Virus record (IMG/VR): IMGVR_UViG_2740892219_000014
From: a virus
Taxonomy: Duplodnaviria > Heunggongvirae > Uroviricota > Caudoviricetes
DNA length: 16,633 bases
Direction: 5' to 3' (one strand)
A model generated the notes under the pieces. That model was not told where the DNA came from, ran no database searches, and worked only from the letters and a program-made list of their open reading frames with translations. The translations under genes were made by a program, and so were the position numbers. This document shows, in pieces, positions 349-16,633 of this stretch. Every line of letters starts with the position of its first letter. The first letter of the stretch is position 1.

Positions 349-567
349 TTTTCATCTCCATATATCTTGCACCCTGTATGGACTCTGATGTGAGTTACAC
401 CACGGATATCCGCTAAGTTGGTGCAATTACTGCTTTTCAATACATTCAACACGCAAATAAATAATCACAATGTATATGCAATAAAAATTAAAACGAATTA
501 TAAATTCACAAAACAAATATATTATTTTCATTACATGTCTTATCAACAGGAGTGCCATTTTACACGA

Positions 568-587
568 TACTGTATACATACACAGTG
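568..587. promoter_or_regulatory. Putative LexA (SOS) box TACTGTATACATACACAGTG
   Basis: CTGT-N8-ACAG palindrome with 17/20 matches to the E. coli consensus TACTGTATATATATACAGTA, both half-sites intact. Lies in the AT-rich divergent intergenic region; a TTGAAA -35-like hexamer sits on the minus strand at 613-618, oriented toward the Mor-like gene, with the -10 ambiguous. Confidence 0.6.
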
Positions 588-903
588 CTATTTATCATTT
601 TTATCGCCTACTTTTCAAAAAGCTCGTTTCCCTCACAGTCGAGGATTTTTTTAAACAAACTTTAAAAATCAAATAAGTAACGACCATGATTGCAATATGT
701 CATCCCCTTCATTACACATAACGCAGGATTTATCTAACTAGCAGCCATTTTATCCTTAGTTCTCTATTTTGAGTTGGGAGATTAATTGGCGAACATGTTA
801 ATTCGAAGAGAACACATTTTTTAAAGTTATTTATTAAAGCTTTTTTCATTCTTCAGCAAAGAGATAAGCAGACACTGGTATCTCACTTATCAGGAGATAT
901 CGT

Positions 904-1191
904 ATGAAAAAAATCACTTTTCCCCGTCTTTCCGGTTGGCTGGCTGCAGCCATTGCTCTGATTGCATTAATCGGCTGGACATCTTCAGCACAAATTCCGG
1001 TCGTCATTTATAAACTAAGCCTGGTTTCACTTTCTGCAGTGCTGGGATACTGGCTCGATCGTAGTTTGTTCCCCTGGGCACGGCCTGACTTTTTTTGCCC
1101 CAGAAAGGAACCGCGTTGCTACGCAGCGGCAATGATTCGTCGCGCCATCATCGTGGCTGCAGTCTGCCTTTCCGTCGCGTTAGGGCTATAG
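904..1191 (+). CDS. Small hydrophobic membrane protein, putative holin
   Basis: 95-aa ORF with AGGAG RBS (892-896) 7 nt before the ATG; 2-3 hydrophobic segments and a charged C-terminal region; its stop TAG (1189-1191) abuts the start of the downstream endolysin gene. Function inferred from position and topology only. Confidence 0.45.
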   Translation: MKKITFPRLSGWLAAAIALIALIGWTSSAQIPVVIYKLSLVSLSAVLGYWLDRSLFPWARPDFFCPRKEPRCYAAAMIRRAIIVAAVCLSVALGL

Positions 1192-1193
1192 TG

Positions 1194-1799
1194 ATGTGGC
1201 TAAAATATATCGCGCTTATGATTATTTTCGTTCTTTTCCCGCTTAACGCGTCTGAACCACCACAAGCCTCTCTGGCATGGAGAAATGAATTGATTCGTAC
1301 CGCCCGAGAAGTCTGGGGACTGAACGCTCCGGTGGCTGACTTTGCCGGGCAATTACACCAGGAGTCCGCCTGGCAGCCAATGGTACGCTCCCCCGTTGGC
1401 GCACAAGGTATGGCGCAATTTATGCCTGCCACAGCGACATGGATAAGCCAACTGTATCCACAGCTACATGAAAACAAACCGTATAACCCAACCTGGGCAA
1501 TCCGGGCGTTGGTACAGTACGACCAGCATTTATGGAACAACATCTCTGCAAAAAATGATTGTCAACGTATGGCGTTTACTCTAAGCGCCTATAACGGTGG
1601 TCAGGGTTGGATTAACCGGGATAAAAAACTGGCGACAACAAAAGGGTTAAATGCCGCCATCTGGTTTGGTCATGTTGAGCAAGTCAACGCCGGGCGCAGC
1701 GCCGCAAACTGGCGAGAAAATCGTCACTATCCGAAGATGATTCTCTATCAACACGCCGCCCGCTACTTACTCTGGGGACAGGCAAGCTGTCTTCACTAA
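1194..1799 (+). CDS. Endolysin, lytic transglycosylase (SLT domain) with N-terminal signal or signal-anchor
   Basis: 201 aa from ATG 1194. N-terminal hydrophobic stretch MWLKYIALMIIFVLFPLNA; the three SLT motifs are present in order: catalytic E-S (QLHQESAWQP), GxxQ (GAQGMAQFMP), AYNxG (LSAYNGGQG). Confidence 0.8.
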   Translation: MWLKYIALMIIFVLFPLNASEPPQASLAWRNELIRTAREVWGLNAPVADFAGQLHQESAWQPMVRSPVGAQGMAQFMPATATWISQLYPQLHENKPYNPTWAIRALVQYDQHLWNNISAKNDCQRMAFTLSAYNGGQGWINRDKKLATTKGLNAAIWFGHVEQVNAGRSAANWRENRHYPKMILYQHAARYLLWGQASCLH

Positions 1800-1811
1800 T
1801 CAGAGGGGCCG

Positions 1812-2126
1812 ATGAAACTCAGTATCGATTTTTGGGAAGTGATCTCCTTTATGCTTTCATTCGTTGGATTAATGTTTGCTGCCGGAAAATTGCTGTTAGC
1901 GCAAATTGAAAAAAGACTTAATGAGCGTTTTGAGTCCCTGGAAAATGCCCGCAGGGAATCAGAAACAAGCTGGTCGAAACTGGAAAGAGAATTTCTCGAA
2001 TTTCGTGCCGAACTTCCACTGTATTATGTCCGCAGAGAGGATTATCTTCGTGGACAAGCAGTATTAGAAGCAAAGCTGGATGCCTTATATAGCAAAATAG
2101 AGTTATTACAACGTGGCAGTTATTAA
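1812..2126 (+). CDS. Membrane-anchored coiled-coil protein of the lysis cassette (possible spanin-like or Mu gp25-like)
   Basis: 104 aa with GAGGGG RBS; N-terminal TM helix (ISFMLSFVGLMFAAGKLLL) followed by a charged heptad-like segment; sits directly after the endolysin and before a terminator. Functional class is inference. Confidence 0.4.
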   Translation: MKLSIDFWEVISFMLSFVGLMFAAGKLLLAQIEKRLNERFESLENARRESETSWSKLEREFLEFRAELPLYYVRREDYLRGQAVLEAKLDALYSKIELLQRGSY

Positions 2127-2130
2127 ATAC

Positions 2131-2164
2131 ATCCCCACCTTTACGTAAGTGTGGGGATTTTTTA
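2131..2164 (+). terminator. Rho-independent terminator after the lysis cassette
   Basis: ATCCCCAC (2131-2138) pairs with GTGGGGAT (2151-2158) around a palindromic TTACGTAA loop, followed by a run of six T; located 5 nt after the stop of the 1812-2126 gene. Confidence 0.7.
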
Positions 2165-2271
2165 TAACCATTCAATTTTTTCTCTAAATCACATTAAAAG
2201 ATTCTTCACTCTCACTGCTTCAGAATACATTTCAACGATAACGAAGTGAGCGGTAATAAGGTACACCTCAT

Positions 2272-2727
2272 ATGAAAGTTTTATCTGTAATGAATTATGT
2301 CGTGGTCAGATTACGTGATCGGCATCCTGAAATGGACATATTCATTTCATCTACGGATGCCCAAAAATATATTCCACAGACACAACAGATTACGGTGATT
2401 ATTAATTATAGCGGTTCTGTCTTCACCACGCCCGAAAGTAGTGATGCCATTGTACAACAGCAAATACTCCGCTTAACCGCCACCGTTATTGTTGGCAAAA
2501 ATTGTGATGCGTTAAACGCACTTGATCACATACGCAGCGCATTGGGAGGCCTTCAGCCTCCTGATTGCGATCATCTTATTTGGCTTGAAAAAGAAATTAA
2601 TACGGGTGAGAGCGACGGTTTCTGCCGCTACATCCTGGAAATGGCGACCAGCTCGCTGTTTATCGCTGAACAGGACAGCACGGATCTTCCCCTGCTTACT
2701 GAAGTTAATTACGAGGAAACTGAATGA
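2272..2727 (+). CDS. Phage virion protein, Mu gp37-like (putative tail completion or terminator protein)
   Basis: 151-aa ORF at the position Mu gene K (gp37) occupies immediately upstream of the sheath gene; its stop overlaps the next ATG (ATGA). Start codon uncertain (ATG 2272 or 2290). Family assignment from synteny and size, not a strong motif. Confidence 0.45.
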   Translation: MKVLSVMNYVVVRLRDRHPEMDIFISSTDAQKYIPQTQQITVIINYSGSVFTTPESSDAIVQQQILRLTATVIVGKNCDALNALDHIRSALGGLQPPDCDHLIWLEKEINTGESDGFCRYILEMATSSLFIAEQDSTDLPLLTEVNYEETE

Positions 2728-2921
2728 AATATATCTACAACGGTCCGGCAAGCGGCGTCACCCTTGCCGACGGTCAAGAAATCTTATTATGGCCGAACAG
2801 TGAAATTGATCTGCCAGAAGACAATGAGTGGGTTATGACCATGATTGCCCGAAATCACTTGATTCTCATCATCCCCCAGGAAGAACAAAATAACGTAGAG
2901 GAAATTGTACATGGCAGCTAA
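2724..2921 (+). CDS. Small phage protein, Mu gp38-like, translationally coupled between gp37-like and sheath
   Basis: 65 aa with GAGGA RBS (2714-2718); start overlaps the upstream stop and its end overlaps the sheath start by 11 nt; acidic; syntenic with Mu gp38. Confidence 0.4.
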   Translation: MKYIYNGPASGVTLADGQEILLWPNSEIDLPEDNEWVMTMIARNHLILIIPQEEQNNVEEIVHGS

Positions 2922-4332
2922 TTATCTGCACGGTGTAGAAACCATTGAAATTGAAACCGGCCCGCGTCCGGTAAAAGCAGTAAAATCAGCTGTAATCGCT
3001 TTAATCGGTACCGCTCCCTGTGGCCCGGTAAACCAACCGACGCTGTGCCTTTCTGAAAGTGACGCGGCACAGTTTGGATCGATTCAGGCTAACTTTACGA
3101 TCCCGCAGGCGCTGAAGGCGATTTATGATCACGGTGCCGGTACAGTGGTGGTAATTAATGTGCTGGATCCAGTAAAACATGGACTACACATTACCAATGA
3201 AACCATTACGTTCAATAGTGACGATAAAGCTAAATTAGCTCATCCGGGGGTAAGTTCGGTAACGCTAAGAGCAAGTATCAGTTCCACTACATACAAAAAT
3301 ACATCATACAGCGTTAATGCCGCTGACGGCGTTATTACCCGTACAGGAACTGAAATTGCGGCAGGAGCAAAGGTTTACGCGACTTATACCTATGTTGACC
3401 CTACAAAGGTCACCGCAGCCGATATTATCGGGGCCGTTAATACCGCAGGCGATCGCACGGGGATGAGGCTCCTTCAGGACACTTATAACTTGTATGGTTT
3501 CTACGCCAAAATTCTGCTGGCACCCGTTTTTTGTACGCAAAAATCAGTGACTACCGAGCTGATTGCACAAGCGGAAAAACTCGGTGCGATTACCTACATT
3601 GATGCCCCAATTGGGACTACATTCCAGCAGGTATTGGCTGGACGCGGTTCGCAAGGCGCAATCAACTTCAATACCAGCTCTGATCGTGCACGTTTATGCT
3701 ACCCACACGTCAAAGTTTACGATGGCATCACTAACCAGGAAATTCTTGAACCTCTCTCTTCGCGCGCTGCCGGGCTACGTGCCAAAGTAGACCTCGAAAA
3801 AGGTTTCTGGTGGAGCAACTCAAACCAGGAAATTCAGGGTATTACCGGTATCGAACGTTCGCTTTCCGCAATGATTGATGATCCACAAAGCGAAGTGAAT
3901 CAGCTCAACGAAAACGGTATTACCACTATTTTCAATAGTTATGGTTCTGGTCTGCGCCTGTGGGGCAACCGCACAGCGGCATGGCCAACCGTGACTCATA
4001 TGCGTAACTTTGAAAACGTTCGCCGGACAGGCGATGTAATTAATGAGTCAATCCGTTATTTCAGTCAACAGTATATTGATATGCCGATCAATCAGGCACT
4101 GATTGACGCGCTGACCGAATCGGTAAATACCTGGGGCCGAAAACTGATTGCCGACGGCGCACTGCTTGGCTTTGAGTGCTGGTACGATCCGGCGCGAAAT
4201 TCACCGGCTGAACTCAGTGCCGGGCATTTATTGCTCAGCTATAAATTTACCCCACCGCCGCCGCTGGAACGTCTGACGTTTGAAACTGAAATTACCTCTG
4301 AATATTTAGTCTCTCTGGAGAGCAATCGCTAA
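2911..4332 (+). CDS. Contractile tail sheath protein (Mu gpL / P2 FI family)
   Basis: 473 aa from ATG 2911 (GAGGA RBS 2898-2902; the track's TTG at 2905 is less likely). N-terminus MAANYLHGVETIEIETGPRPV is typical of sheath proteins; size and position directly upstream of the tube gene fit. Confidence 0.9.
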   Translation: MAANYLHGVETIEIETGPRPVKAVKSAVIALIGTAPCGPVNQPTLCLSESDAAQFGSIQANFTIPQALKAIYDHGAGTVVVINVLDPVKHGLHITNETITFNSDDKAKLAHPGVSSVTLRASISSTTYKNTSYSVNAADGVITRTGTEIAAGAKVYATYTYVDPTKVTAADIIGAVNTAGDRTGMRLLQDTYNLYGFYAKILLAPVFCTQKSVTTELIAQAEKLGAITYIDAPIGTTFQQVLAGRGSQGAINFNTSSDRARLCYPHVKVYDGITNQEILEPLSSRAAGLRAKVDLEKGFWWSNSNQEIQGITGIERSLSAMIDDPQSEVNQLNENGITTIFNSYGSGLRLWGNRTAAWPTVTHMRNFENVRRTGDVINESIRYFSQQYIDMPINQALIDALTESVNTWGRKLIADGALLGFECWYDPARNSPAELSAGHLLLSYKFTPPPPLERLTFETEITSEYLVSLESNR

Positions 4333-4856
4333 TGGCTGGAAAAATTCAAATTAACCGTATTACCAACGCCAATATTTATCTCGATGGTAATAATCTTTTA
4401 GGCCGTGCAACAGAAATTAAATTGCCAGATGTCAGTTTAATTATGCAGGAACATAAAGCACTGGGCATGGTGGGTAAAATAGAACTCCCGGCTGGTTTCG
4501 ATAAACTGGAGGGGGAAATTAAATGGAACTCCTTTTACCAGGACGTAATGCGTAAAACGGCAAACCCGTGGCAGGCTGTAGCATTACAGTGTCGCTCCAG
4601 TATTGATTGTTATAACTCTCAGGGGAAAGCGAATCAATTAGCGTTAGTCACACATTTAACCGTGATGTTTAAAAAAAATCCACTGGGCACATTTAAACAG
4701 AATGAAAACCCGGAATTCAGCAGCGCCTTTGGCTGCACTTATATTAAACAAGTAGTCGATGGTGAAACGCTGCTTGAACTGGATTATATGGCGAATATTT
4801 TCCGCGTTAACGGCGTGGATCAATTAAGTACCTATCGCAATAACATCGGTGGCTAA
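4332..4856 (+). CDS. Tail tube protein (Mu gpM / P2 FII family)
   Basis: 174 aa; start overlaps the sheath stop (TAATG). N-terminus ...NANIYLDGNNLLGRATEIKLP and C-terminus ...NIFRVNGVDQLSTYRNNIGG closely resemble the P2 FII tube pattern (NLFxDGxN ... VNGVDxLxxxRxNIG). Confidence 0.9.
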   Translation: MAGKIQINRITNANIYLDGNNLLGRATEIKLPDVSLIMQEHKALGMVGKIELPAGFDKLEGEIKWNSFYQDVMRKTANPWQAVALQCRSSIDCYNSQGKANQLALVTHLTVMFKKNPLGTFKQNENPEFSSAFGCTYIKQVVDGETLLELDYMANIFRVNGVDQLSTYRNNIGG

Positions 4857-4862
4857 GTTATT

Positions 4863-4878
4863 CGGGGCTACGGCCCCG
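4863..4878 (+). other. GC-rich hairpin (CGGGGC-TACG-GCCCCG) right after the tube gene
   Basis: Perfect 6-bp GC stem with tetraloop 7 nt after the tube stop; no T-run follows, so more likely an RNA stability or attenuation element than a full terminator. Confidence 0.35.
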
Positions 4879-4906
4879 AACTCCGCAAAATAAATAAGGA
4901 TACAAA

Positions 4907-5224
4907 ATGAAAGAGCATTATATCTTACAGTTTCCCTTTACGTCGGCAGCAGGAAATAATATCGACACGCTACAATTACGTCGCCTGAAAGTCAAAGATA
5001 TGCGTAATGCACGCCGGGTCAGCGAAAAGCCGGAAGAATGGGATGAACCGCTAATGGCAGCGATGACCGGGCTGGTACCAGAAGATTTAGCTGAAATGGA
5101 TTTGCTGGATTACCAGGCGTTGCAGAAACGATTTCAATCCATGCTTACCGTGGCTACAGAATCCCCCCTTGCTATGGCAGGCAATGGCGCTACTGGCGAG
5201 ATGGTTTCGCTTTCCACCCAGTGA
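4907..5224 (+). CDS. Tail assembly chaperone (P2 gpE / Mu gp41 position), short in-frame product
   Basis: 105 aa, acidic, with AAGGA RBS; located between the tube and tape-measure genes, as for tape-measure chaperones. Confidence 0.7.
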   Translation: MKEHYILQFPFTSAAGNNIDTLQLRRLKVKDMRNARRVSEKPEEWDEPLMAAMTGLVPEDLAEMDLLDYQALQKRFQSMLTVATESPLAMAGNGATGEMVSLSTQ

Positions 5225-5312
5225 GATTGACGCTCTAACGATAGATGACTTTAGTCACTGGCTGGATGAAGCCAGCGCTCAAATAAAAATCGAATATGAC
5301 TCGCAGACCTGA
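5163..5312 (+). other. Putative programmed frameshift site (C6 run) and +1-frame extension giving a longer chaperone isoform
   Basis: The +1 frame (equivalent to -2) is open from 5055 to a TGA at 5310-5312, overlapping the chaperone 3' end; UCC_CCC_CUU at 5162-5170 would let tRNA-Pro re-pair 2 nt back; the extension reads ...PPSEIDALTIDDFSHWLDEASAQIKIEYDSQT. The -1 frame closes almost immediately. Confidence 0.45.
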
Positions 5313-5412
5313 TGTCTGCGAGTTCTTCAAAGCCCGCCAGGTTTATTTCTTCCCAGCCCATTTTTCAGAAAACTAACCAGCGGGCCATCACCAATCTATA
5401 AGAGAAACAATT

Positions 5413-7788
5413 TTGGCCAACGATATTATTACCCAGCTTCAGGCGCGTAATGAGACGTTGACGCAGGCAATAGCCCGTTACGGCTCACTCAACGCCAGAA
5501 CATTGTTAGCACTCTCTTCTCAGCAAGCGACAGTAATCAAACTAACGCAGCAACTTGCCGATTCCGCTCTCCGCCTGGAGGAAAATAGCCGAAACCGCGC
5601 TGATCTGATGGAGAAAACCCAAACATTTGCTGGGCAATTTAGCAAAGTATTCAATGTTGAAGTCCCTGACTGGAAGTTGCCGTATGAGTTTCAGGACAAC
5701 ATGGTCAATTTGGCGACCAAAGGTGGGATGAATGATACAACCCGCGAGACACTCAGCCTTAATCTGCGCGACTGGAGCATGGATTTTAACCAGCAGCAGA
5801 CCACCTTACAGAACGCAGCCCAGGTGCTAATCGAAGGTAATTTGTCGTCGATGCAGGATCTCAACCGTTATATGCCGGAGCTCGCCAAAGCGGCCACCAC
5901 CACGCGCGAAAGTGCTGAAACATGGGCGAATGCCGCGCTCGCGACTCATGATCGACTGAATATTGCGCCAGAAAATTTCCACGCCGCGCAAAACATGATG
6001 TACGGCATTAGCAAAAACGGTGGGCCTACCGTTGCCGGGCAAACACAGTGGATAGACAAATTTGCAGTTAAAACTGGCGCACAGGGTTTAGAAGGTATGG
6101 CTGAACTGACCGCCACAATGCAGATCGCAATGAAAAATGGTGCCAGCGCCAGTGTGGCGGCGGAGAATTTCGACCACTTTCTGCAAACCATCTTTTCGAA
6201 AAAAACCGATAACTGGTTCGTCAGCCAGGGCGTCGATCTGCAAGGCTCTTTGCTTGAACATCAGCAAAACGGCATGGGTGTTAGCGAAGCCATGATTCAT
6301 ATCGTGCAAACGCAACTTGAGAAGATGAATCCGGCGATCCTCGACACCTTCAAACGCACCATGCAAATTGAAGATTTATCTGCTCGCAGCAACGCACTGC
6401 AATCGATGGTGACGCAATTTAATCTGGGCGAAATGTTCGGCGATGCGCAAACAGTGGAATTCCTGGCACCTGTGCTGGCGAATATGGAAGAGTATCGCCA
6501 GTTAAAAGCATCCGCCATGCAAGACAGCGGTAAGAATATGATTGACAACGATTTTTCTGTGCAGATGGCCTCGCCCATTGAACAAACTAAAACGTTACAA
6601 CTGGCGTTAAATGATTTATGGCTCAGCATTGGCTTGCAATTAATGCCGCTGATTGGCGAGTTGGCGCAAAGCCTTACTCCGGTGATTCGCCAGTTCAGCG
6701 CCTGGCTACGTGAACACCCGGCGCTGGTGCAAAACATTGCGAAAATCGTCGGAGCGATTTGGCTGTTTAACGGCGCACTGAATGTTTTAAAGCTGGGCGC
6801 GAACGTCATCGCCTCGCCGTTTATTCGTCTGGTCGATATCTTCCTGAAAGTCAGGGCAAGTCTGACGCTCACAGGCGCGGCAAGTAAGATGCTATCAGCG
6901 GTTAATTCATTATATAACGGCGCAAAATGGCTAACGCAACTGCTTGGCCGTGGCCTGATTGGCGCATTGAAACTGGCAGGTCAGACCGTCTTCTGGTTGG
7001 GTAGAGTTTTATTGATGAATCCTATTGGTCTGGTCATCACCGCGATTGCGGGCGCTGCTTATCTGATCTATCGCCACTGGGAACCTATCTCCAGATTCTT
7101 TTCCGCCATCTGGCAACGTATCACCACGGCCTTTGACGGCGGCATTGCAGGGATTTGCCGGTTAATTCTCGACTGGTCGCCGCTGGAGTTGTTCTACAAC
7201 GCCTTTTCCAGTGTGATGAATTGGTTTGGTGTCGAGATGCCTGCAAGTTTTAGCGAGTTCGGCAGCAATCTTCTGGGCAGTCTGGTTGACGGCATAATGA
7301 ATGCTTTCCCCGCTCTGAAAGGCATTATTGATCAGGTCAAAAACGCCTTACCGGACTGGCTAAAAACCACGATGGGTATTAGCACAGAAGGATCGGCTAC
7401 GGCTGTTACAAGCACGACGAATACCGCATCAATCTCCCCCACGACCGTTGTTCCAGGCGTTGCCGGAGCGATTTTAACGCCTCCTGTGGGCAAACAACTC
7501 GCGCCATCCAGTAAAACGACAACGTCGCCATCGACACCAGCGGAAAAAAATACAGCCGCCAAACCCGCATCGGCTTCTTTACCTGGTAAATCTGTAACCA
7601 AACCGGCGACGCTCCCCTCCCGTTCCTCTGGAAAAGTTCAGGTGAATTTTTCGCCACAAATTACCGTGCAGAGTAACGGACAAAACACCACTAAAGACAT
7701 TCAGAACGTGTTGACGATAAGTAAACGCGAACTGGAAAGAATGATTAACGACGTAATGGCGCAACAACAGCGCCGGGGGTATGCCTGA
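5413..7788 (+). CDS. Tail tape measure protein
   Basis: 791 aa; helical Q/A/L-rich N-terminal half, hydrophobic glycine-rich segments in the middle, and a Ser/Thr/Pro-rich low-complexity C-terminal region; sits after the chaperone gene. Apparent TTG start at 5413 (no in-frame ATG or GTG after the upstream stop at 5374-5376). Confidence 0.85.
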   Translation: MANDIITQLQARNETLTQAIARYGSLNARTLLALSSQQATVIKLTQQLADSALRLEENSRNRADLMEKTQTFAGQFSKVFNVEVPDWKLPYEFQDNMVNLATKGGMNDTTRETLSLNLRDWSMDFNQQQTTLQNAAQVLIEGNLSSMQDLNRYMPELAKAATTTRESAETWANAALATHDRLNIAPENFHAAQNMMYGISKNGGPTVAGQTQWIDKFAVKTGAQGLEGMAELTATMQIAMKNGASASVAAENFDHFLQTIFSKKTDNWFVSQGVDLQGSLLEHQQNGMGVSEAMIHIVQTQLEKMNPAILDTFKRTMQIEDLSARSNALQSMVTQFNLGEMFGDAQTVEFLAPVLANMEEYRQLKASAMQDSGKNMIDNDFSVQMASPIEQTKTLQLALNDLWLSIGLQLMPLIGELAQSLTPVIRQFSAWLREHPALVQNIAKIVGAIWLFNGALNVLKLGANVIASPFIRLVDIFLKVRASLTLTGAASKMLSAVNSLYNGAKWLTQLLGRGLIGALKLAGQTVFWLGRVLLMNPIGLVITAIAGAAYLIYRHWEPISRFFSAIWQRITTAFDGGIAGICRLILDWSPLELFYNAFSSVMNWFGVEMPASFSEFGSNLLGSLVDGIMNAFPALKGIIDQVKNALPDWLKTTMGISTEGSATAVTSTTNTASISPTTVVPGVAGAILTPPVGKQLAPSSKTTTSPSTPAEKNTAAKPASASLPGKSVTKPATLPSRSSGKVQVNFSPQITVQSNGQNTTKDIQNVLTISKRELERMINDVMAQQQRRGYA

Positions 7789-8741
7789 TGTATGCCGTTT
7801 TAGGAGAGATTGAATTTAAGGTTGTCACATTCTGGGACGGCTTTAAAAGCACAATGGGCGTGGACTACGCCACACATGCCCGTATAGAAGGCAAACCCGG
7901 CGTGCAGTTTATTGGCGATAAGCTGGATATGCTGGCACTGGAATTTTCCTTGCACAGCCAGTTTTGCCAACCCACAACAGAGCTGAATCGACTGCGTGAA
8001 GCCATGCTTGCCCACAAAGCGATGGCTCTGGTGTTTGGCAATGGCGATTATCGCGGCTGGTTTGTGATTACGGAGCTAACCGCCACCCACCAGCACACCG
8101 ATCCCTGGGGCAATGTGATTGCTCAAAGCGGAACAATGTCGCTCCAGGAGTACACCGGCGATCCTAAAAATCCACTCTTGCCCCCGGCAATTACTACCCA
8201 AGACCCGAATATTGACGAAAAGGCGAGCGATTTTCCAGACATGGTGGAGTCCTGGTTTGATCAGATATTGAACGCCATTGAAGAAGGTATGCGTAAGGCC
8301 AAAGAGATGCTCGATGAGCTGACTCAAGCCATTGAAGATATTAAAAAAACGGTGGCAAAAGTGAAAGCACTGGTTAAAGAGGCCAAAGCGTTAAAAGAAA
8401 AGTGTGAAAAGATAATTACGTCGTTGAAAAAGACTATCGACGCCATCGAAACCCTGTTTAAACAGCCCATGGATCTGCAAACGCTGGCAGGACTCCCAAA
8501 AGCGTTGTCGGCGCAGATTAACGCTTTACTGGGTAACATGCCAGGTATCCGGGACTGCGCCAAAGACGCCAGCACGCTGGTTGACCATGCTCAGGCGCTT
8601 TTCGACGACATTACCAACGACATCGCCGAAGCGACGTTCGATAAAGCCGCAACGTTGGTTGAGCAGGCACGAACAACGGTACAACAAACCACTCCCGCAG
8701 TGAGCCAGCTTGCTGCCGCGACCATTACGAGGAGCTGGTGA
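7788..8741 (+). CDS. Tail protein with gpU-like N-terminal domain (about 130 aa) fused to a long predicted coiled-coil C-terminal region
   Basis: 317 aa; start overlaps the tape-measure stop (TGATG). The N-terminal segment fits the slot and general pattern of P2 gpU / Mu gp43 N-domain; residues about 150-317 are K/E/A/L-rich heptad-like sequence (EEGMRKAKEMLDELTQAIEDIKKTVAKVKALVKEAKALKEK...). Confidence 0.5.
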   Translation: MYAVLGEIEFKVVTFWDGFKSTMGVDYATHARIEGKPGVQFIGDKLDMLALEFSLHSQFCQPTTELNRLREAMLAHKAMALVFGNGDYRGWFVITELTATHQHTDPWGNVIAQSGTMSLQEYTGDPKNPLLPPAITTQDPNIDEKASDFPDMVESWFDQILNAIEEGMRKAKEMLDELTQAIEDIKKTVAKVKALVKEAKALKEKCEKIITSLKKTIDAIETLFKQPMDLQTLAGLPKALSAQINALLGNMPGIRDCAKDASTLVDHAQALFDDITNDIAEATFDKAATLVEQARTTVQQTTPAVSQLAAATITRSW

Positions 8742-8950
8742 TGCGATACCTTGAACATATCACCACCGACGGCGAACGCTGGGATAATCTGGCATGGCAT
8801 TACTACGGCGATGCGCTGGCTTATGAACGCATCATCGCCGCCAATCCACATGTCGCCATTTACCCGGTACTGCCTTCCGGTATTCAGCTCATTATTCCGG
8901 TCATTTCCGTCAACAAAACCTTATCGGAGATACCACCATGGCTGAGATAA
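8741..8950 (+). CDS. Tail protein X-like (LysM-like fold, P2 gpX family)
   Basis: 69 aa from ATG 8741 (GAGGA RBS 8730-8734; overlaps the upstream stop). The sequence GERWDNLAWHYYGDALAYERIIAANPHVAIYPVLPSGIQLIIP fits the gpX pattern (GDxxDxLxxxYYG...ANPxL...LPxGxxLxIP). Confidence 0.7.
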   Translation: MRYLEHITTDGERWDNLAWHYYGDALAYERIIAANPHVAIYPVLPSGIQLIIPVISVNKTLSEIPPWLR

Positions 8951-9978
8951 GCGTATCTGGTGGCGTCTTTGCCACACTCGCGCCCATTTTTACCCTTTGG
9001 TATGGGCATAAAGATATCACTTATGACATCACGCCCTATGTCACCAGCATCAGTTACCACGACAGCATCAAAAACGAGTCAGATACCATCGCCATTACAC
9101 TGGATGACACCGATGGACGTTGGATAAAAGAGTGGTATCCCGGCAAAGGCGATACGCTGGCGCTGCATATGGGTTATCAGGGGGAGACGCTCCTCGATTG
9201 CGGTCAGTATATTATTGATAAAATTGATATTTCATCACCACCTTCCACGGTAAATATTGATGGCATTGCCACTTCCGTCAATCAGGCGCTGCGTACCCGT
9301 AACAGTCAGGGCTTTGAAGAAACGACGCTTTCGGCCATCGCCAGTCGTATCGCGCAAACTCACGGTCTGAAGCTGGTGGGCAAAATCGAGCCGCTGGCGA
9401 TTGACCGGGTGACACAGTACGGCGAAACCGATGTTGGATTTCTCAAGCGTCTGGCCAGCGAATATGGCTATACCGTGAAAGTGACGACAAAAGAGCTGAT
9501 TTTTTCACATCTGCCGACACTACGCTGCCTGGCGCCAGTGAAAACCATCGACCGCAAAGAGGTTTCGCACTTTACCTTCAAAGACACCATTAATCGCATC
9601 TACAAGAACGCCACCGTACAGCATCAAAATAGTAAGAAAAAAGAACTGGTTATCTACACTCACGACAGCCAGCAAAAACCGTCAGCCCGTGGAGTCGGCA
9701 CCAGTGCCGACACGTTGAAACTCAACAGCCGGGCGACGGATGTTGGCGCGGCACAGGCAAAGGCCAACGCTGCACTCGACAGCCACAACGAATATCAGCA
9801 AACCGGAACACTCAGGATGATGGGCTGCCCGGAACTGACAGCAGGCAATAAAATCGAACTCATTGATTTTGGTATTCTTTCTGGACAATGGCTGATTGAT
9901 AAATCTACTCACAGTTTTGTGCGCAGCGGCTATACCACTGAAATCGACGTTTCGCGCGGGCCAGCAACCAGCCAGTAA
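8938..9978 (+). CDS. Baseplate hub / late control gene D-like protein (P2 gpD, Mu gp44 family)
   Basis: 346 aa with GGAG RBS; start overlaps the gpX-like 3' end; size and position (after U/X, before the spike) fit the gpD family. Confidence 0.8.
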   Translation: MAEISVSGGVFATLAPIFTLWYGHKDITYDITPYVTSISYHDSIKNESDTIAITLDDTDGRWIKEWYPGKGDTLALHMGYQGETLLDCGQYIIDKIDISSPPSTVNIDGIATSVNQALRTRNSQGFEETTLSAIASRIAQTHGLKLVGKIEPLAIDRVTQYGETDVGFLKRLASEYGYTVKVTTKELIFSHLPTLRCLAPVKTIDRKEVSHFTFKDTINRIYKNATVQHQNSKKKELVIYTHDSQQKPSARGVGTSADTLKLNSRATDVGAAQAKANAALDSHNEYQQTGTLRMMGCPELTAGNKIELIDFGILSGQWLIDKSTHSFVRSGYTTEIDVSRGPATSQ

Positions 9979-9987
9979 GGAGGCACT

Positions 9988-10647
9988 ATGAAGGGAGTAA
10001 CCCGGCAAACGGGGATTATCAGCGATATTGACGAAACCAGCGTTCGGGTGCGAGTCACACTGCCAGAGTGCGACAATCTGAAGAGTAACTGGCTTGCGGT
10101 ACTTCAACGTAATTCCCAGGACAATAAAGACTACTGGCTACCGGATATGGGTGAGCAGGTGGAAGTTCTGCTGGACGACAACGGCGAAGATGGCGTGGTA
10201 CTTGGGGCCGTTTATTCTACGGTTGACACCGCGCCTGTGGCCTCGCGAGATAAACGTTACGTCCAGTTTTCTGATGGCGCAGCGTTTGAATATGACCGCA
10301 GCACACACCAGCTTACGATTAACGGCGGTATTGAGAAAATCGTGATTGAGGTTATTGACCGTACTAACCTGACATCACCCAACGTTGAGGTTAAAGCCCA
10401 ACAGGTCACCGTGACTTCCGATACCGTCGATATTAAAGCGACGGCAGTGACGGTAGATGCGCCCATGAGCACCTTTACTGGTAACGTCACGGTAATGAAA
10501 AAACTCACCTGGCTGGGTGGCATGGCAGGAAGTGGAGGCATCGGTAACGCCGCCACGATAACTGGCAATGTCAATGTGATTGGTAACGTTCAGGCCAGCG
10601 GCACATTGCAGGATAGCGGTGGTAACTCAAATCACCATTCACACTAG
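9988..10647 (+). CDS. Baseplate central spike (P2 gpV / Mu gp45 family)
   Basis: 219 aa with a perfect AAGGAGG RBS; N-terminal OB-fold-like region, a middle region of repeated short beta-strand motifs (VTVTSDTVDIKATAVTVDA...), a glycine-rich section and a C-terminal NHHSH tip, as in gpV-type spikes with a metal-binding apex. Confidence 0.85.
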   Translation: MKGVTRQTGIISDIDETSVRVRVTLPECDNLKSNWLAVLQRNSQDNKDYWLPDMGEQVEVLLDDNGEDGVVLGAVYSTVDTAPVASRDKRYVQFSDGAAFEYDRSTHQLTINGGIEKIVIEVIDRTNLTSPNVEVKAQQVTVTSDTVDIKATAVTVDAPMSTFTGNVTVMKKLTWLGGMAGSGGIGNAATITGNVNVIGNVQASGTLQDSGGNSNHHSH

Positions 10648-10653
10648 CTTTTA

Positions 10654-10682
10654 ACCCGCCTGATGGCGGGTTTTCTCTTTTT
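10654..10682 (+). terminator. Rho-independent terminator-like hairpin after the spike gene
   Basis: ACCCGCC-TGAT-GGCGGGT stem-loop followed by TTTTCTCTTTTT, starting 7 nt after the gpV-like stop; leaves a roughly 60-nt spacer before the gpW-like gene. Confidence 0.55.
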
Positions 10683-10745
10683 AATCAATCAGTTTTCTAA
10701 ATCGCTTTAATATCCCCACTGTCCGTTCAGGGCGAAAATAAGCAC

Positions 10746-11105
10746 ATGAACACAAAAACACGCCCCTCAACGCTGCACTGGCAACCCGCCTTGCAGCGGC
10801 CTGAAGAATACGTCTGCGGACTGGATGATATTCACCAGGCAATACACATCATTCTGCGCACGCCGCGCGGCAGTGATCCCCACAGACCGCTGTTTGGCAG
10901 CAACTTGTGGCACTACATCGATTACCCCATCGAGCGGGCAATCCCGCATGTGGTACGGGAGTCGGTGGAAGCCATCCGCCAGTGGGAACCGCGATGTCGG
11001 TTGCTGAAGGTAGCACCGATAATCGACGGTGAACATCTGACGTTACGTGTGCAATGGCGCGCCGCTGACGGCGTAATCAACTCAACGGAGGTGTTATGGC
11101 GATAG
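10746..11105 (+). CDS. Baseplate protein W (GPW/gp25 family)
   Basis: 119 aa; IHIILRTPRGSDPHRPLFGSNLWHYID ... WEPR matches the GPW/gp25 signature (ILxTxxGE/S...P.FGS.L...D...WEPR). Confidence 0.75.
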   Translation: MNTKTRPSTLHWQPALQRPEEYVCGLDDIHQAIHIILRTPRGSDPHRPLFGSNLWHYIDYPIERAIPHVVRESVEAIRQWEPRCRLLKVAPIIDGEHLTLRVQWRAADGVINSTEVLWR

Positions 11106-12211
11106 CCGAACCCGATTTTATTGACCGCGATCCTGCGCAAATTACCAGCGAGATGATTGCGCAATACGAAGATGCCAGCGGTAAAAAACTCTATCCGGCA
11201 CAGGCCGAACGGTTACTCATCGACCTGTTTGCCTATCGTGAAAACCTTGTGCGCATCGCCATTCAGGAAGCGGCGAAACAAAACCTGGTCGCGTATTCCC
11301 GCGCACCAATGTTGGATTATTTAGGGGAGCTGGTGGGTGTTCACCGTTTACCTGCGCAACCGGCAAAAACGACGTTGCAGTTTTCGGTCGTCAGTGCGTA
11401 TACCAGCAATATCCTGATTCCCCAGGGGACGCGGGCCAGTGCCTCTGACAGCGTGATGTTCGCCACCGATGAAGATGTTCTGCTTCCGGCCAGGAGTTTG
11501 CATATCGCCGTTCCGGCCACCAGCCTCGCAGTAGGTGAACAGGGCAATGGCTGGCAGCCTGCACAGATTAGCGCCCTTGTTGACAGGATCGGTTATTACG
11601 ATATCAACGTGACTAATCTGACTCCCACAACCGGCGGTTGTGGTGAAGAGAACGATGATGCACTACGCCAGCGTATACAACTGGCGCCAGAAAGCTTCAG
11701 TAATGCCGGCAGCTATGGCGCATATCGCTTTCATACACTTTCGGTTAGCCAGTCAATTATTGACGTTACAGTACTGGGGCCAGATGAAGGGTTGCCAGAA
11801 GGCTGCGTCGAGCTCTACCCGCTAACCCTGAATGGTCTGCCAGGAACCGAGCTACTCGCGCAAATTGAACAAGAAGTGAGTAAAGAGAAAAAACGTCCGC
11901 TGACTGACAAAGTAAGTGCGAAATGTGCTCTTAGGGTGCCGTATGAAATTCGTGCGCAGCTAACGCTGTTTACCACCGCCGATCAGGAGACAACACTGGC
12001 TGCGGCGCGTAAAGCGATTAGCCTCTGGACGCAACAGCGGCAGAAACATCTGGGGCAGGACATTGTGCCAAACCAGATAATCAAAGTGTTACAAGTCGAT
12101 GGCGTCTATGACGTTGTGCTGAACATGCCTACAAAACGTATTTTGCAGGCGCATGAATGGGCGGAATGCACTGTAATAGACGTCACGATTGCCGGAGTCA
12201 GCGATGGATAA
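11096..12211 (+). CDS. Baseplate wedge protein J (P2 gpJ / Mu gp47 family)
   Basis: 371 aa; start overlaps the gpW-like stop; DDALRQRIQLAPESFSNAGSYGAYRFHTLS resembles the conserved gpJ core; sits in the gpW-gpJ-gpI order. Confidence 0.85.
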   Translation: MAIAEPDFIDRDPAQITSEMIAQYEDASGKKLYPAQAERLLIDLFAYRENLVRIAIQEAAKQNLVAYSRAPMLDYLGELVGVHRLPAQPAKTTLQFSVVSAYTSNILIPQGTRASASDSVMFATDEDVLLPARSLHIAVPATSLAVGEQGNGWQPAQISALVDRIGYYDINVTNLTPTTGGCGEENDDALRQRIQLAPESFSNAGSYGAYRFHTLSVSQSIIDVTVLGPDEGLPEGCVELYPLTLNGLPGTELLAQIEQEVSKEKKRPLTDKVSAKCALRVPYEIRAQLTLFTTADQETTLAAARKAISLWTQQRQKHLGQDIVPNQIIKVLQVDGVYDVVLNMPTKRILQAHEWAECTVIDVTIAGVSDG

Positions 12212-12920
12212 ATTGCTGCCACCGCCGCCGCTTGCCAGCGATGAGCGTTTTTCAACTCTGGCAAATATCGCCGCCGAACGTTTTGCGCAACTCGATCTGA
12301 CGGCATTAATGATATACCTGGTCGACCTGGTTGATGCTTCGGCATTACCTGCCCTTGCAGAACAATTTCACGTTCAGGGGCTGGAAGGTTGGTTATTTAC
12401 TACTGATGAACAAGAGAAGCGTGAGTTAATTAAGCAAGCCATTGAGTTACATAAATATAAAGGAACAGTTTGGGCGGTACGGCGAGTACTGGAAATACTC
12501 TCATTGCCTGGAACTATTGCCGAATGGTTTGAATATGGCGGGAAAGCTTATTTTTTTAAGGTTGATATTACACTAGAGGAAAAAGGGTTAAATGAAGATG
12601 AATTTAATGCACTTATCACATTAATTCATGAATATAAAAATGTTCGTTCAAAACTGGAAAGTATTGTTATTTGGCTTATTAATCAAAGCTCAATACCAGT
12701 TATTGGCAGTGCCATGCAAGGAGGGGAAATCATTACAGTATTGCCTCCTGTTGCAGAAAGTATCAGCCAATCATCAAGAATATTTTTAGCGACAGGTTAT
12801 TGTGTAGAGGAATATATCCAACTACTACCTTATCAACCTGATCGCCTTACACAATCCCAACCGATGAAAATCGGTACAGGATACTGGAGCACCGAAATTA
12901 TGTCTGTATACCCGGAGTAA
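12204..12920 (+). CDS. Baseplate/tail protein I-like (P2 gpI / Mu gp48 position) with an AT-rich C-terminal extension
   Basis: 239 aa from ATG 12204 (GGAG RBS; ATGGATAA overlap with the gpJ-like stop; the track's TTG at 12189 is less likely). N-terminus [16 protein letters not shown] fits the gpI type; the 3' half (about 12480-12920) is markedly AT-rich compared with neighbours. Confidence 0.65.
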
Positions 12921-12922
12921 TA

Positions 12923-14671
12923 ATGGCAAGTGAATTTTTTACAATATTAACTGCTGCAGGCAAAACCCAAATTGCCTCAGCACTGGCGGAGCAAAAACAG
13001 ATCCGTCTGCAAACTATGGTAGTTGGCGATGGCAACGGTAAATATATCGAACCGACAGAAATCCAGACCAAAGTAGTCCATGAGGTCTGGCGTGGTCAGC
13101 TCAATACATTAAAAATTGCGCCAGATAATCCGGCCTGGGTTATCGCAGAAGCGATTATTCCCGAAGAGGTTGGAGGCTGGTATGTTCGCGAAGTTGGGTT
13201 GCTGGATACCGACGGCACGCTGGTCGCTATTGGTAAATTCCCTGAAACCTATAAACCACAATTACCTGCAGGTGCCAGTAAGCAAATTGTTATACGCGCA
13301 GTGATGGAAGTGACAAATGCGGATGTGGTGACGCTGTTGATAGATCCTTCAGTTGTTATGGCAACCAGGGAATATGTCGATGACACGCTGAAAGCACATC
13401 AGCAATCACGAAATCATCCTGATGCAACACTGACGCAGAAAGGTTTCACGCAACTGAGTAATGCAACTAATAGCGATGATGAAACCAAAGCGGCCACACC
13501 AAAAGCAGTAAAAACCGCATATGACCTGGCAAATAGCAAAGCCGCCACCAGCCATACTCATGGCTGGAATCAGATAACCAGTATCCCTGACGGTACGCTG
13601 GCGCAGAAAGGGATTGTGAAGCTTAACAGTACCACAAACAGCACCAGCACAACGGAAGCTGCAACACCGAGCGCGGTGAAGGCGGCAATGGATAAGGCTA
13701 CTGCGGCTGCACCAGCAAGCCATACCCACACCTGGGGACAAATCACTGGTATCCCCGACGCCACGCTGACGCAAAAAGGAATTGTGAAGCTTAACAGTAC
13801 CACAAACAGCACCAGCACGACGGAAGCTGCAACACCGAGCGCGGTGAAGGCGGCAATGGATAAGGCTATTGCGGCAGCACCAGCAAGTCATACCCACGCC
13901 TGGGGACAAATCACTGGTATCCCCGACGCCACGCTGACGCAAAAAGGAATTGTGAAACTTAACAGTACCACAAACAGCACCAGCACGACGGAAGCTGCAA
14001 CACCGAACGCGGTGAAGGCAGCAATGGATAAGGCTATTGCGGCGGAAAACTGTCCCGTAGGTATGCCTATTCCCTGGCCGTCTGATTCTGTACCTTCAGG
14101 CTATGCGCTGATGACAGGACAAACATTCAATAAAACCTCCTATCCCAAACTGGCGATTGCATATCCATCTGGTGTCATTCCTGATATGCGTGGATGGATA
14201 ATTAAAGGGAAACCGGCCAGTGGGCGCACAGTATTATCAACTGAACTGGATGGAGTTAAATCACATAACCATACGGGCAGTATTTCTAGTACGGATTTAG
14301 GGACAAAAACCACAGCCCTCACAGACTTGGGGACTAAAACTACATCAGCATTTAACCATGGTAATAAAACAACAAGTTCATCTGGCACAGTCTCGGCAAC
14401 TGCAACTGTAAGAACAGGGACATCTTCGCCAGAGGGCCAAGCCGACTGGACATCATATGGCCCTGGAACCGGATCATCTTTGACTATTAATGTTCCATCA
14501 CACGCCCATAGTATTACAATTGGTTCCCATTCCCACACTGTTGCACTCGGCACCCATTCGCATTCAATTGCCCTTGGTTCCCATAACCACTCCCTAACCA
14601 TTAATAATACAGGCCCCCCCGAAAACACCGTTAAAAATATCGCATTCAACTATATTGTGAGGCTAGCATGA
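12923..14671 (+). CDS. Tail fiber protein (P2 gpH / Mu S type) with collagen-like repeats and a His-x-His tip
   Basis: 582 aa. Conserved N-terminal baseplate-attachment region (HEVWRGQLN...[38 protein letters not shown]...[48 protein letters not shown]); three 56-aa tandem repeats ([36 protein letters not shown]...); a C-terminal array of H-x-H motifs; and a terminal ...[15 protein letters not shown]. Confidence 0.9.
13553..14045 (+). repeat. In-frame 168-nt tandem repeat, about 2.9 copies, inside the tail fiber gene
   Basis: Copies begin at 13553, 13721 and 13889 (period exactly 168 nt); copies 2 and 3 are nearly identical at the nucleotide level and copy 1 is more diverged; a degenerate partial copy lies upstream at about 13425-13552. 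Confidence 0.85.
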
Positions 14672-15375
14672 ATACTTTTACCTTTTCCGATGAAGCTCAA
14701 ATACTGACTGTTTATAATTTTTCACAAGACTCCCGAGAATATATTGGTGAGTCTGATGCATACATTGCGCCTAATACAGGCTTACCAAATTTTTGCACAT
14801 TAATTTCACCTCCCAAAAAGGTTCCTGGTTTTACTCCTGTTTGGGAGAGTGAAACATGGGGACTTATTGAAGATCATCGAGGCCAAACAGTTTATAACAA
14901 AGTTGATGGCAGCCAGACTATTATTAATAAATTGGGTCAATTGCCTGAAACTGTCACAATTATTTCCCCTACCAGTACTTTTGAGCGTTGGGATGGCGAA
15001 AAATGGCAGCCATCACTTGATGATGCTAAACAGGCGATATATGCCGAAATCAAAAACCTGCGCGATTCTGCCATCGCCGATTACATCATCATCAACGCTC
15101 ATCACTTCCACAGTGATACAAATAGCCGAATACAACAACTCTCACTCACAAAAATGGGAGCCGAAAAACAAATTCCGCCAGGTTTAATGTGGAAAACTAA
15201 AAATAACGGTCTGATTGAGTTAACCAACGAAATCGCCGCCCAGTTTGAATCGGTAACAATAGATCACGATATGCGCCTGTTTGCCAACGCCCAGCGCCAT
15301 ATTGCGGCGGTGGAAACTCTGGGCGATATTCAGGCAGTGCTCGACTACGACTACTCCACAGGCTGGCAACCATGA
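14668..15375 (+). CDS. Tail fiber assembly protein (Tfa, chaperone for the fiber tip)
   Basis: 235 aa; start overlaps the fiber stop (ATGA). N-terminal region ...[34 protein letters not shown]...[20 protein letters not shown]...[13 protein letters not shown]...WDGEKW resembles lambda/P2-type Tfa N-domains; the C-terminal half is divergent. Confidence 0.8.
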
Positions 15376-15827
15376 GTAAAACCACTGTCTGGCTCGCTTG
15401 CTATAAAGGCCGAACAGAGCACCGGGGTATTGCGCAACTAGCTGACTGGCTTACCCGTAAAATCACACGCGGCAGTTATTCCCACTGCGAGTTAGCAGTG
15501 GTATATGGTGAAAAAAATTACCTTTGTTACTCTGCATCACTGCGCGATCGCGGTGTACGCGGAAAGATAATGCCACTACCGTCAGATAAGTGGGATATGC
15601 TGCCGCTCCAGGCTAGCGTTCAGGATGTGGAAGCTTTTTTCCATAAACATAATGGCAAAAAATACGACTGGCGCGGAGCCTTAGGAATTATCACAGGCAA
15701 TAAAGAACAGCGCGATCGTCTGTTCTGCAGTGAATTTTGCGCCGAGTTTCTACAGTTAAAAGAGAGTTGGCGCTATTCCCCAAACCATTTGTATGCTTTA
15801 GTCAGCAGTTGGCAATATCAGCCGTAA
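15372..15827 (+). CDS. Hypothetical 151-aa protein coupled to tfa; possible permuted papain-like (NlpC/P60 YaeF/LRAT-like) hydrolase or acyltransferase
   Basis: ATG overlaps the tfa stop (ATGA), so it is the last gene of the tail operon. An N-proximal His (SYSHCELAVVYG) and a C-proximal Cys in a CSEF context (RLFCSEFCAEF) tentatively fit a permuted His...Cys papain-like arrangement. It is real as an ORF; the function is weakly supported. Confidence 0.5.
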   Translation: MSKTTVWLACYKGRTEHRGIAQLADWLTRKITRGSYSHCELAVVYGEKNYLCYSASLRDRGVRGKIMPLPSDKWDMLPLQASVQDVEAFFHKHNGKKYDWRGALGIITGNKEQRDRLFCSEFCAEFLQLKESWRYSPNHLYALVSSWQYQP

Positions 15828-15832
15828 AATAA

Positions 15833-15853
15833 CGCCGGGCATCACGCCCGGCG
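15833..15853. terminator. Hairpin shared by the convergent gene ends; likely terminator for the minus-strand gene
   Basis: CGCCGGGC-ATCAC-GCCCGGCG stem-loop between the plus-strand stop (15825-15827) and the minus-strand stop (15842-15844, inside the loop); on the minus strand it is followed by TTATTTTAC, whereas on the plus strand no T-run follows. Confidence 0.55.
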
Positions 15854-16633
15854 CATTACCGTCTGGTACAGTAAACTATCCAGTTCCTTAACGTCCCCTT
15901 CCCTGCTGTCCGGTAACACTGGTGGAATTTTCCCGTGCACCAGTTCCGTACTAATAAACACATGCAACAAAGGACGACGCGGACCATATTCCACTTCACC
16001 CGCACGCTGTTTACATTCCAGCAACTCGTCTATTTCTGCGCGTAACGGCGCATCAAGTTCGCTTCCCGCCAGTAATTCGGCAAACCGCATTGGCAGTACA
16101 CCTTTACCCGCTTCAACCCAACGCACAGCCAGCAGTGGCCGCAGCACGTAAAAGTATTTTTTCAGCCAAACTACGTTGCCCTGCAAATAACCGCGAAAAT
16201 TTTTCCGCGCCATCGGATAATAATGCCAACGCGCGCGCAGCGGAGAAAACCACTTCGGCACCATTGCCTTAAGCGCCGTTATCGTTTCTTCATCTTGTTG
16301 ATAGACCACCGGAGAATCCAGCCATTCAATCAGCGTCGGATTCGCGCCTTTCAGTAATCCCAGCGCCTTGCGCCACTCCCAGCCTGAAACATCTAACTCG
16401 TCGTCAATAGGCAACTCAATAACATCGCGCGGCGCCTCCACCCGCAGATACCATTCCGGCGGATGAACATACAAGAACCGCACATCGTAGTCGCTGTCGG
16501 GTGAGGCAAATCCCCAACCGCGACTCCCCGATTCACTCGCATACAACACTTTCACATCATACCGCCGTTCAATTTCTTTTAACTGCTGCGATACCCGTTC
16601 GTGCATCGCAACACTGACTCCATTTAATGGCAT
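15842..16633 (-). CDS. Nucleotidyltransferase-fold protein (Pol beta superfamily)
   Basis: 263-aa ORF whose ATG is the last codon of the window (16631-16633), so the true N-terminus could lie beyond the edge. The motif LYASESGSRGWGFASPDSDYDVRFLY matches the minimal nucleotidyltransferase signature hG[GS]-x(9-13)-DhD; it is convergent with the tail operon. Confidence 0.6.
   Translation of the reverse strand: MPLNGVSVAMHERVSQQLKEIERRYDVKVLYASESGSRGWGFASPDSDYDVRFLYVHPPEWYLRVEAPRDVIELPIDDELDVSGWEWRKALGLLKGANPTLIEWLDSPVVYQQDEETITALKAMVPKWFSPLRARWHYYPMARKNFRGYLQGNVVWLKKYFYVLRPLLAVRWVEAGKGVLPMRFAELLAGSELDAPLRAEIDELLECKQRAGEVEYGPRRPLLHVFISTELVHGKIPPVLPDSREGDVKELDSLLYQTVMRRA

Follow-up and report, generated by a model that had tools for sequence, protein, structure and literature searches.

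The sharing of fibre-tip modules among T-even phages, lambda and P2/Mu-like fibres is long established, as are iron-binding histidine-x-histidine (HxH) motifs, and the mosaicism of P2 tail fibres is said to have been the subject of work in 1992. Here we describe the tail fibre encoded in IMG/VR virus record IMGVR_UViG_2740892219_000014 (Caudoviricetes), a stretch of 16,633 nucleotides hereafter called the window, and compare its C-terminal tip domain with the closest described systems. According to the structural literature, each HxH triplet of the phage T4 gp37 trimer binds one of seven irons along a needle (PMC6957217; PMC6116203). The source on T4 describes the needle as an insertion into the collar domain, with the C-terminal strand 1010-1026 forming part of domain D10; it reports that the tip-adjacent histidines are essential, H929A and H931A being null, and it locates the receptor-contact residues in the tip subdomain (PMC6957217). 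HxH-iron geometry is also described for R1/R2 pyocin fibres and P2-type spikes in PMC6116203.

Homology of the fibre tip with T4 gp37

Our analyses indicate, with a probability of about 0.88, that residues 374-582 of the window fibre are a receptor-binding module of the T4 gp37 / lambda Stf type, consisting of a collar with an inserted needle of metal sites, whose tip loop reads the receptor and whose folding is assisted by Tfa. The first-pass annotation of this DNA had likened the HxH motifs to those of gp37, and the likeness proved to be direct homology going beyond motif resemblance, residues 374-582 matching 2XGF with E = 4.6e-62. In the phmmer search of PDB sequences the match to 2xgf_A extended over the entire crystallised domain (query 374-582 against chain residues 26-242). 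The module of lambda Stf (orf-314) was 49% identical (E = 9e-81).

Alignment of T4 gp37 with the window fibre, using the domain limits given in PMC6957217, revealed that identity varied greatly by segment. The collar (D10, T4 811-881) was identical at 54/71 positions and the final strand (T4 1010-1026) at 16/17, while the stem was identical at 23/50 positions in the ascending and 20/50 in the descending strand, and the tip subdomain (T4 932-959) at 4/28. Five of the seven T4 HxH motifs (883, 966, 980, 989 and 998) paired with the five of the window, those at H966, H980, H989 and H998 aligning with its four descending units, while the T4 motifs at 915 and 929 were without counterpart. The resulting map of the fibre gene and the gene that follows it is given below.

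12923-14671, plus strand: tail fibre gene, an open reading frame (ORF) of 1749 nucleotides (582 residues) with matches to Pfam and PHROG tail-fibre families
12923-13369, plus strand: N-terminal baseplate-attachment domain of P2/Mu type, residues 1-149 (PF12571, E = 1.3e-57)
13409-14041, plus strand: shaft of Phage_fiber_2 repeats, residues 163-373 (PF03406, E = 8.4e-65, four stretches)
14042-14260, plus strand: collar, T4 D10-like, residues 374-446 (PF07484)
14264-14272, plus strand: base HxH motif H448-N-H450 (SHNHT), aligning with T4 H883/H885, histidine in 100% of 92 homologues
14291-14380, plus strand: ascending stem of three 10-residue repeats, residues 457-486 (from the sequence; conserved in T4)
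14390-14398, plus strand: V490-S-A492, at the place of the tip-proximal HxH motif (T4 H929/H931) in the alignment of homologues, a motif carried by about 97% of relatives
14399-14482, plus strand: hypervariable tip subdomain, residues 493-520, the predicted distal end and receptor-contact region
14498-14596, plus strand: descending stem, SHAHSITIG / SHSHTVALG / THSHSIALG / SHNHSLTIN, residues 526-558 (from motif positions and the 27-nucleotide repeat)
14618-14671, plus strand: C-terminal strand, residues 566-582, and stop codon
14668-15375, plus strand: tail-fibre assembly protein Tfa, 235 residues (Pfam Caudo_TAP_N and DUF4376; PHROG 105)

Pfam matches within the fibre ORF were to Phage_tail_fib (residues 1-149), Phage_fiber_2 (four times) and Collar (residues 380-426), and the C-terminal remainder was without Pfam assignment. 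The Collar match, which precedes the needle, had E = 9.1e-11 and 42 bits against a cut-off of 24.

The motifs SHAHS, SHSHT, THSHS and SHNHS reported by the first-pass annotation were found at residues 527, 536, 545 and 554 (nucleotides 14501-14590). The regular spacing that it described was exactly 9 residues, and all four motifs lie inside the last 57 residues. The DLGTKTT repeats that it placed before the array were likewise found, as two perfect copies, at 458-464 and 468-474, with FNHGNKTT as a degenerate third. The interval it had assigned to the array, 14280-14671, does contain the array but begins too late: the domain starts at about residue 374 (nucleotide 14042), and H448/H450, a fifth HxH motif of the tip domain 8 nucleotides upstream of that interval, is cut off. 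Tandem Repeats Finder independently detected a 27-nucleotide repeat (2.7 copies, 14513-14584) within the array. The array is not due to chance. In composition-preserving shuffles, 20000 per segment, the eight HxH motifs of the whole fibre protein were matched in 0/20000 (shuffle mean 0.65) and the five of residues 374-582 also in 0/20000, while the four motifs in the 130 residues of the earlier interval were matched in 12/20000.

Predicted needle and its conservation

A model of the needle was built by reference to the T4 crystal structure. Three chains would run outward as an ascending strand of 10-residue xDLGTKTTxx repeats, form a small hypervariable tip (approximately residues 493-520) and return in a descending strand made of 9-residue HxHxhxhGx repeats, so that the needle would have six antiparallel strands. 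Each HxH motif, taken over the three chains, would supply six imidazoles coordinating one buried metal ion on the three-fold axis, and the aliphatic residues between the histidine pairs would fill the remaining core. Even positions of every descending 9-mer were found to be H, H, aliphatic, aliphatic, a pattern compatible with a beta-strand that turns one face towards a core of alternating metal sites and hydrophobic layers. Five metal sites are expected in the window needle, compared with seven in T4. We infer from the homology that the histidines cluster on the axis and that the metal is iron. The sites would set the register of the needle and stiffen it, while the receptor would be read by the tip loop instead. 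Folding would need Tfa, co-translated from the adjoining gene, with an N-domain of the type that accompanies this kind of tip. Carried on the Mu/P2-like shaft of a headless tail cluster, the module would set the target range of the tail-like particle.

The description of the histidines as an array at the fibre tip is not in agreement with the T4 topology, which puts the HxH strand on the way back down to the collar; by homology, the C-terminus probably lies back at the collar and re-enters it. The proposal that this domain determines specificity was retained in part. The HxH array is an invariant scaffold and was discarded as the determinant, while the likely one is the hypervariable loop at about 493-520, in which only 3-4 of 28 residues agree with T4 or with the next closest relative (L006, 3/28).

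The shaft also holds histidine motifs. A 168-nucleotide (56-residue) tandem repeat was detected at 13581-14043 (Tandem Repeats Finder, period 168, 2.8 copies, 95% matches), and SHTH occurs once per 56-residue unit, at H211, H267 and H323 (nucleotides 13553-13897). These motifs may form three further axial metal sites. The copy number of the unit is polymorphic, with three copies in the window fibre (582 residues) and two in Escherichia coli orthologues and L087 (526 residues).

With a threshold of E <= 1e-5, a word-indexed search gave 1041 relatives, most of them prophage fibres of Escherichia. When 1.84 billion cluster representatives were scanned exhaustively with HMMER, 1526 relatives were obtained with E <= 1e-3, of which 240 had E <= 1e-30. 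In the relatives from the HMMER scan the module was always C-terminal, on fibres of 214-1599 residues. The closest named protein to the window fibre was from Escherichia albertii (99% identity), probably the species from which the window comes. A megablast search of the fibre-Tfa DNA against phage records returned only two partial Salmonella matches, at 74-76% identity over Tfa and the downstream region, and thus no close relative among cultured phages.

Alignment of 92 unique C-terminal domains revealed that all ten histidines of the five window motifs are 99-100% conserved, while the 28 tip residues are essentially unconserved; the ending formed by the C-terminal strand is shared by the large majority of homologues. 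Needle length is modular across the family, from 3 to 9 HxH motifs and from 165 to 260 residues, so that the number of HxH motifs is not a defining character of gp37/Stf-type tips. Shorter members of the tip subtype to which the window fibre belongs lack exactly one ascending 10-mer and one descending 9-mer (VALGTHSHS), and over 179 unique sequences, phylogeny being ignored, the count of ascending GxK repeats tracked that of descending HxH motifs (Spearman rho = 0.56). Such coupled gain of an upward and a downward unit is what an up-tip-down hairpin demands, and it argues that a single needle is made by pairing the DLGTKTT repeats, as one strand, with the HxH array as the other.

Thirteen further contig matches came from unrelated taxa (L011-L021, L025 and L078; for example Chromatium, Leeuwenhoekiella, Neobacillus, Pseudomonas, Shewanella and Bradyrhizobium). 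Twelve of these contigs were 100% identical to phage lambda DNA and L078 was 99.94% identical; several of the lambda-identical contigs were of low coverage, three of those measuring about 48.4-48.5 kb. These matches are contamination of public assemblies with lambda control DNA and do not reflect the real distribution of the module.

The tip without the tip-proximal HxH motif

Several observations weigh against the gp37-type reading. The HxH site of T4 gp12 holds zinc in crystals (PMC6116203), and the metal of the window fibre, expected from T4 to be iron, may likewise be zinc. An AlphaFold2 model of the monomer, based on an alignment of 51 sequences, was poor (predicted local distance difference test, pLDDT, 60; predicted template modelling score, pTM, 0.22). 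In a Foldseek search with this model 2xgf_A was the only match at E <= 0.001 (E = 1.4e-7), with a template modelling score of 0.32 and a root mean square deviation of 12 A; the model was not used as evidence of geometry, and axial clustering of the histidines is therefore argued from homology. Two of the seven T4 sites are absent, including the tip-proximal one that is essential in T4, so that the distal needle cannot be modelled by simple transfer from that structure. Finally, some copies of the cluster are decaying in E. coli: the fibre gene of strain 20 consists of pseudogene fragments (L001 15001-16197), TCM3e1 (H5) carries an ISVsa5 insertion, and the tape-measure gene of 2016C-3878 has an internal stop (L004 6449-8824).

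The last two points would be explained if the module were a decaying remnant in which the tip-proximal HxH motif had been lost and the needle no longer folded, the fibre and its cluster being the debris of a cryptic prophage. The site has H/H in 90/92 aligned homologues and V/A only in the window fibre and its 99% twin P0001; the corresponding T4 substitutions are null, and a split fibre gene in a close relative (L088 8256-10004) adds to the broken copies. We nevertheless consider such decay improbable. The E. coli orthologues likewise lack the tip-proximal HxH motif, the substitution being in frame, and between them and the window the histidine-less tip is kept at 93-94% amino acid identity although the DNA is only about 89% identical. 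Changes in the tip relative to the E. coli orthologue were one non-synonymous and three synonymous, and the ratio of non-synonymous to synonymous substitution rates (dN/dS) was 0.08 over the gene in full and 0.28 over the needle, indicating purifying selection. The motif was missing in 7/231 family members, and all seven share a tip of the form ..RTxTxSPEGxxDWTxYGPGxGxxL.., which recurs on otherwise different fibres of 278-672 residues (P0027, P0041, P0051, P0124 and P0130 compared). In the window itself every ORF of the cluster is intact.

Because the substitution is shared with a conserved tip subtype and lies in a gene under purifying selection, the evidence favours V490/A492 as a variant rather than a product of decay: a maintained tip subtype, in which the needle would close distally with this metal site missing. 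A frameshift hiding an HxH motif at 490-492 was also considered and rejected, as the DNA encodes no HxH in an alternative frame and the same in-frame substitution is present in the E. coli orthologues. A tblastn search with the 74-residue tip region gave no match in 50,697 phage records; filtering for low complexity or the brevity of the query may account for this, and it is not taken to show absence.

Even less probable is that the histidine array serves as a functional surface, for example for the binding of external metal or of iron carried by siderophores, or for receptor contact, and not as a buried core. Histidine-rich repeats elsewhere can be solvent-exposed metal binders, and PMC11705849 discusses a 'Ferrojan/Trojan horse' idea for HxH-bearing fibres. 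However, the homologous HxH histidines of T4 are buried ligands of axial iron and its receptor-contact residues lie in the tip subdomain, while across the family the histidines are invariant though host ranges differ, and it is the tip loop that is hypervariable. A further reading, in which the regular HxH spacing is a by-product of low complexity or tandem repetition and plays no part in metal binding, gains some colour from the 27-nucleotide repeat and the Ser/Thr/Gly-rich composition of the region but is effectively refuted by the T4 homology, the alignment and the histidine conservation in the 92 homologues: the repeat copies are only 66% alike in DNA yet each histidine codon is retained, shuffles fail to reach the observed count, and the homologous residues are metal ligands in 2XGF.

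Tail cluster, assembly protein and comparison with known systems

The adjacent Tfa chaperone named by the first-pass annotation was confirmed by comparison with lambda Tfa (residues 3-114), to which the N-terminal 113 residues of the window protein are 43% identical (E = 3e-32). Identity to T4 gp38 (residues 1-101) was 25% (E = 6e-9), and lambda Tfa and gp38 are themselves related; lambda Tfa can reportedly substitute for gp38. The start codon of the gene overlaps the fibre stop (ATGA), and the product matched PHROG 105, tail fibre assembly (E = 7e-42). Residues 119-227 correspond to DUF4376 (E = 2.4e-13), while no alignment was obtained with the C-terminal half of lambda Tfa, its oligomerisation domain; searches of NCBIfam and PDB gave no informative match and no detectable relative, respectively. 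By its sequence, the gene at 14668-15375 is thus a Tfa-like chaperone with a replaced C-terminal domain.

A homologue of the Tfa N-domain was found directly downstream of the fibre in 32/36 loci with this tip type. The C-terminal half was of the lambda type in most of the 36 loci and of the DUF4376 type only in two, L006 (Superficieibacter) and L009 (Serratia microhaemolytica), whose fibres are related and are followed by the same chimera of Tfa N-half and DUF4376. An N-domain conserved across loci and a C-terminal half that is swapped agree with the modular scheme in the literature, where the N-domain is matched to the fibre tip and binds it, and oligomerisation depends on the C-domain (PMC9608196, summarising North et al. 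2019).

The window (1-16633) encodes a Mor activator, holin, transglycosylase (SLT), sheath, tube, chaperone, tape measure, gpU/X/D, V, W, J, I, the fibre and Tfa, and no head, packaging, replication or integration genes were found in the cluster. Of 5426 complete E. coli genomes, 196 (about 4%) carry a cluster of 89% identity. In E. coli and in the close relatives of the window it occupies the interval from lysC to yjbD-rluF and is free of capsid and integrase genes; examples of its extent are L001 2052-19675 and L004 1052-18676, and L086 provides another. Contigs with an identical Tfa have the same right-hand junction, and one of them (L089) also has an identical fibre. The combination of a complete contractile-tail set with lysis genes and a regulator, the lack of capsid, packaging, replication and integration genes and the fixed site corresponds to the architecture of an R-type tailocin, and from its genes the cluster is a candidate R-type tailocin of Escherichia. 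Our literature search for a tailocin at the lysC locus of E. coli or E. albertii found nothing relevant.

It is possible, although we would put it at less than even odds, that an uncharacterised tip subtype without the iron site essential in T4 is the targeting device of an undescribed R-type tailocin fixed in the Escherichia chromosome between lysC and yjbD. If true, it would suggest a new receptor specificity and offer a natural example of how far the metal 'zipper' can be shortened.

Other features of the region were recorded. A gap of about 190 nucleotides separates the ORF of the tail-assembly chaperone (4907-5224) from that of the tape measure (5413-); a product of programmed -1 frameshifting (P2 E/E'-like) would be expected here, and in L089 a 42-residue ORF is called there. 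Downstream of Tfa, an ORF of 151 residues (15372-15827) overlaps the Tfa stop (ATGA) and matched PHROG 1128, 'moron' (E = 2e-56), while no Pfam, NCBIfam or PDB match was obtained; its position beside Tfa is conserved in E. coli and also in Salmonella records, where the DNA is 74-76% identical. Genes for an RlaP-family nucleotidyltransferase and a Band_7/slipin protein occupy 15842-16633 on the minus strand and beyond (L086 11175-13099). Both lie within the lysC-yjbD insertion, in convergent orientation to the tail cluster, and may be cargo or defence genes travelling with it.

The analysis turns a generic "tail fibre protein" into a usable domain map with a conserved scaffold (collar, ascending DLGTKTT repeats and descending HxH repeats), a swappable tip of about 28 residues and a cognate chaperone that has to be expressed together with the fibre. 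Such a map would be useful for retargeting or expressing the fibre, or for predicting the target range of the headless tail cluster. The scientific addition is small, as module sharing and HxH iron were already known, and the modest new point is a conserved tip subtype without the tip-adjacent metal site.

Among known systems, T4 gp37 (D10 collar and D11 needle, 2XGF) is homologous to the window fibre across the whole 209 residues, with about 52% identity in the Foldseek alignment. The two have in common the collar, the ascending DLGTKTT repeats, four descending HxH motifs, the base HxH motif and a near-identical C-terminus. They differ in the number of HxH motifs, five in the window needle and seven in T4, whose H915/H917 and essential H929/H931 have no counterpart, and in the tip subdomain, which is unrelated in sequence. 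The module is carried by a Mu/P2-type fibre of 582 residues in the window and by a protein of 1026 residues in T4, and the former has as its chaperone a Tfa whose C-terminal half is DUF4376, the latter gp38; no gp57A-like gene was found in the window. Lambda Stf and Tfa, with the module identity given above, show the same gene order with overlapping stop and start codons, while lambda Stf has eight HxH motifs and a much longer tip region, and the C-terminal half of lambda Tfa is a different domain from DUF4376.

Residues 107-152 of phage Mu gpS (TfaMu, PDB 5YVQ) matched residues 163-208 of the window shaft (E = 1.6e-5), and both fibres have a modular Tfa whose N-domain binds the fibre tip, while the C-terminal receptor-binding part of the window fibre is not of the Mu type. 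The T4 short fibre gp12 and its relatives have the collar domain in common with it (9cuy_c, E = 6e-7 over residues 376-452). They differ in having a single HxH metal site (PMC6116203) and a different receptor-binding head, without a needle of repeated HxH motifs.

The phmmer search of PDB sequences gave no match between the window fibre and the R1/R2 pyocin fibre (PA0620; PDB 6CL5/6CL6). As described in PMC6116203, this is likewise the receptor-binding fibre of a headless contractile particle, with a buried axial HxH-iron site and a chaperone gene directly downstream, and it differs in having a single iron in a shaft domain and an end domain of lectin fold. The likeness is thus one of role and principle and not of family membership, while the tip of the window fibre belongs to the well-known, horizontally mobile fibre-tip module, with minor conserved variation.

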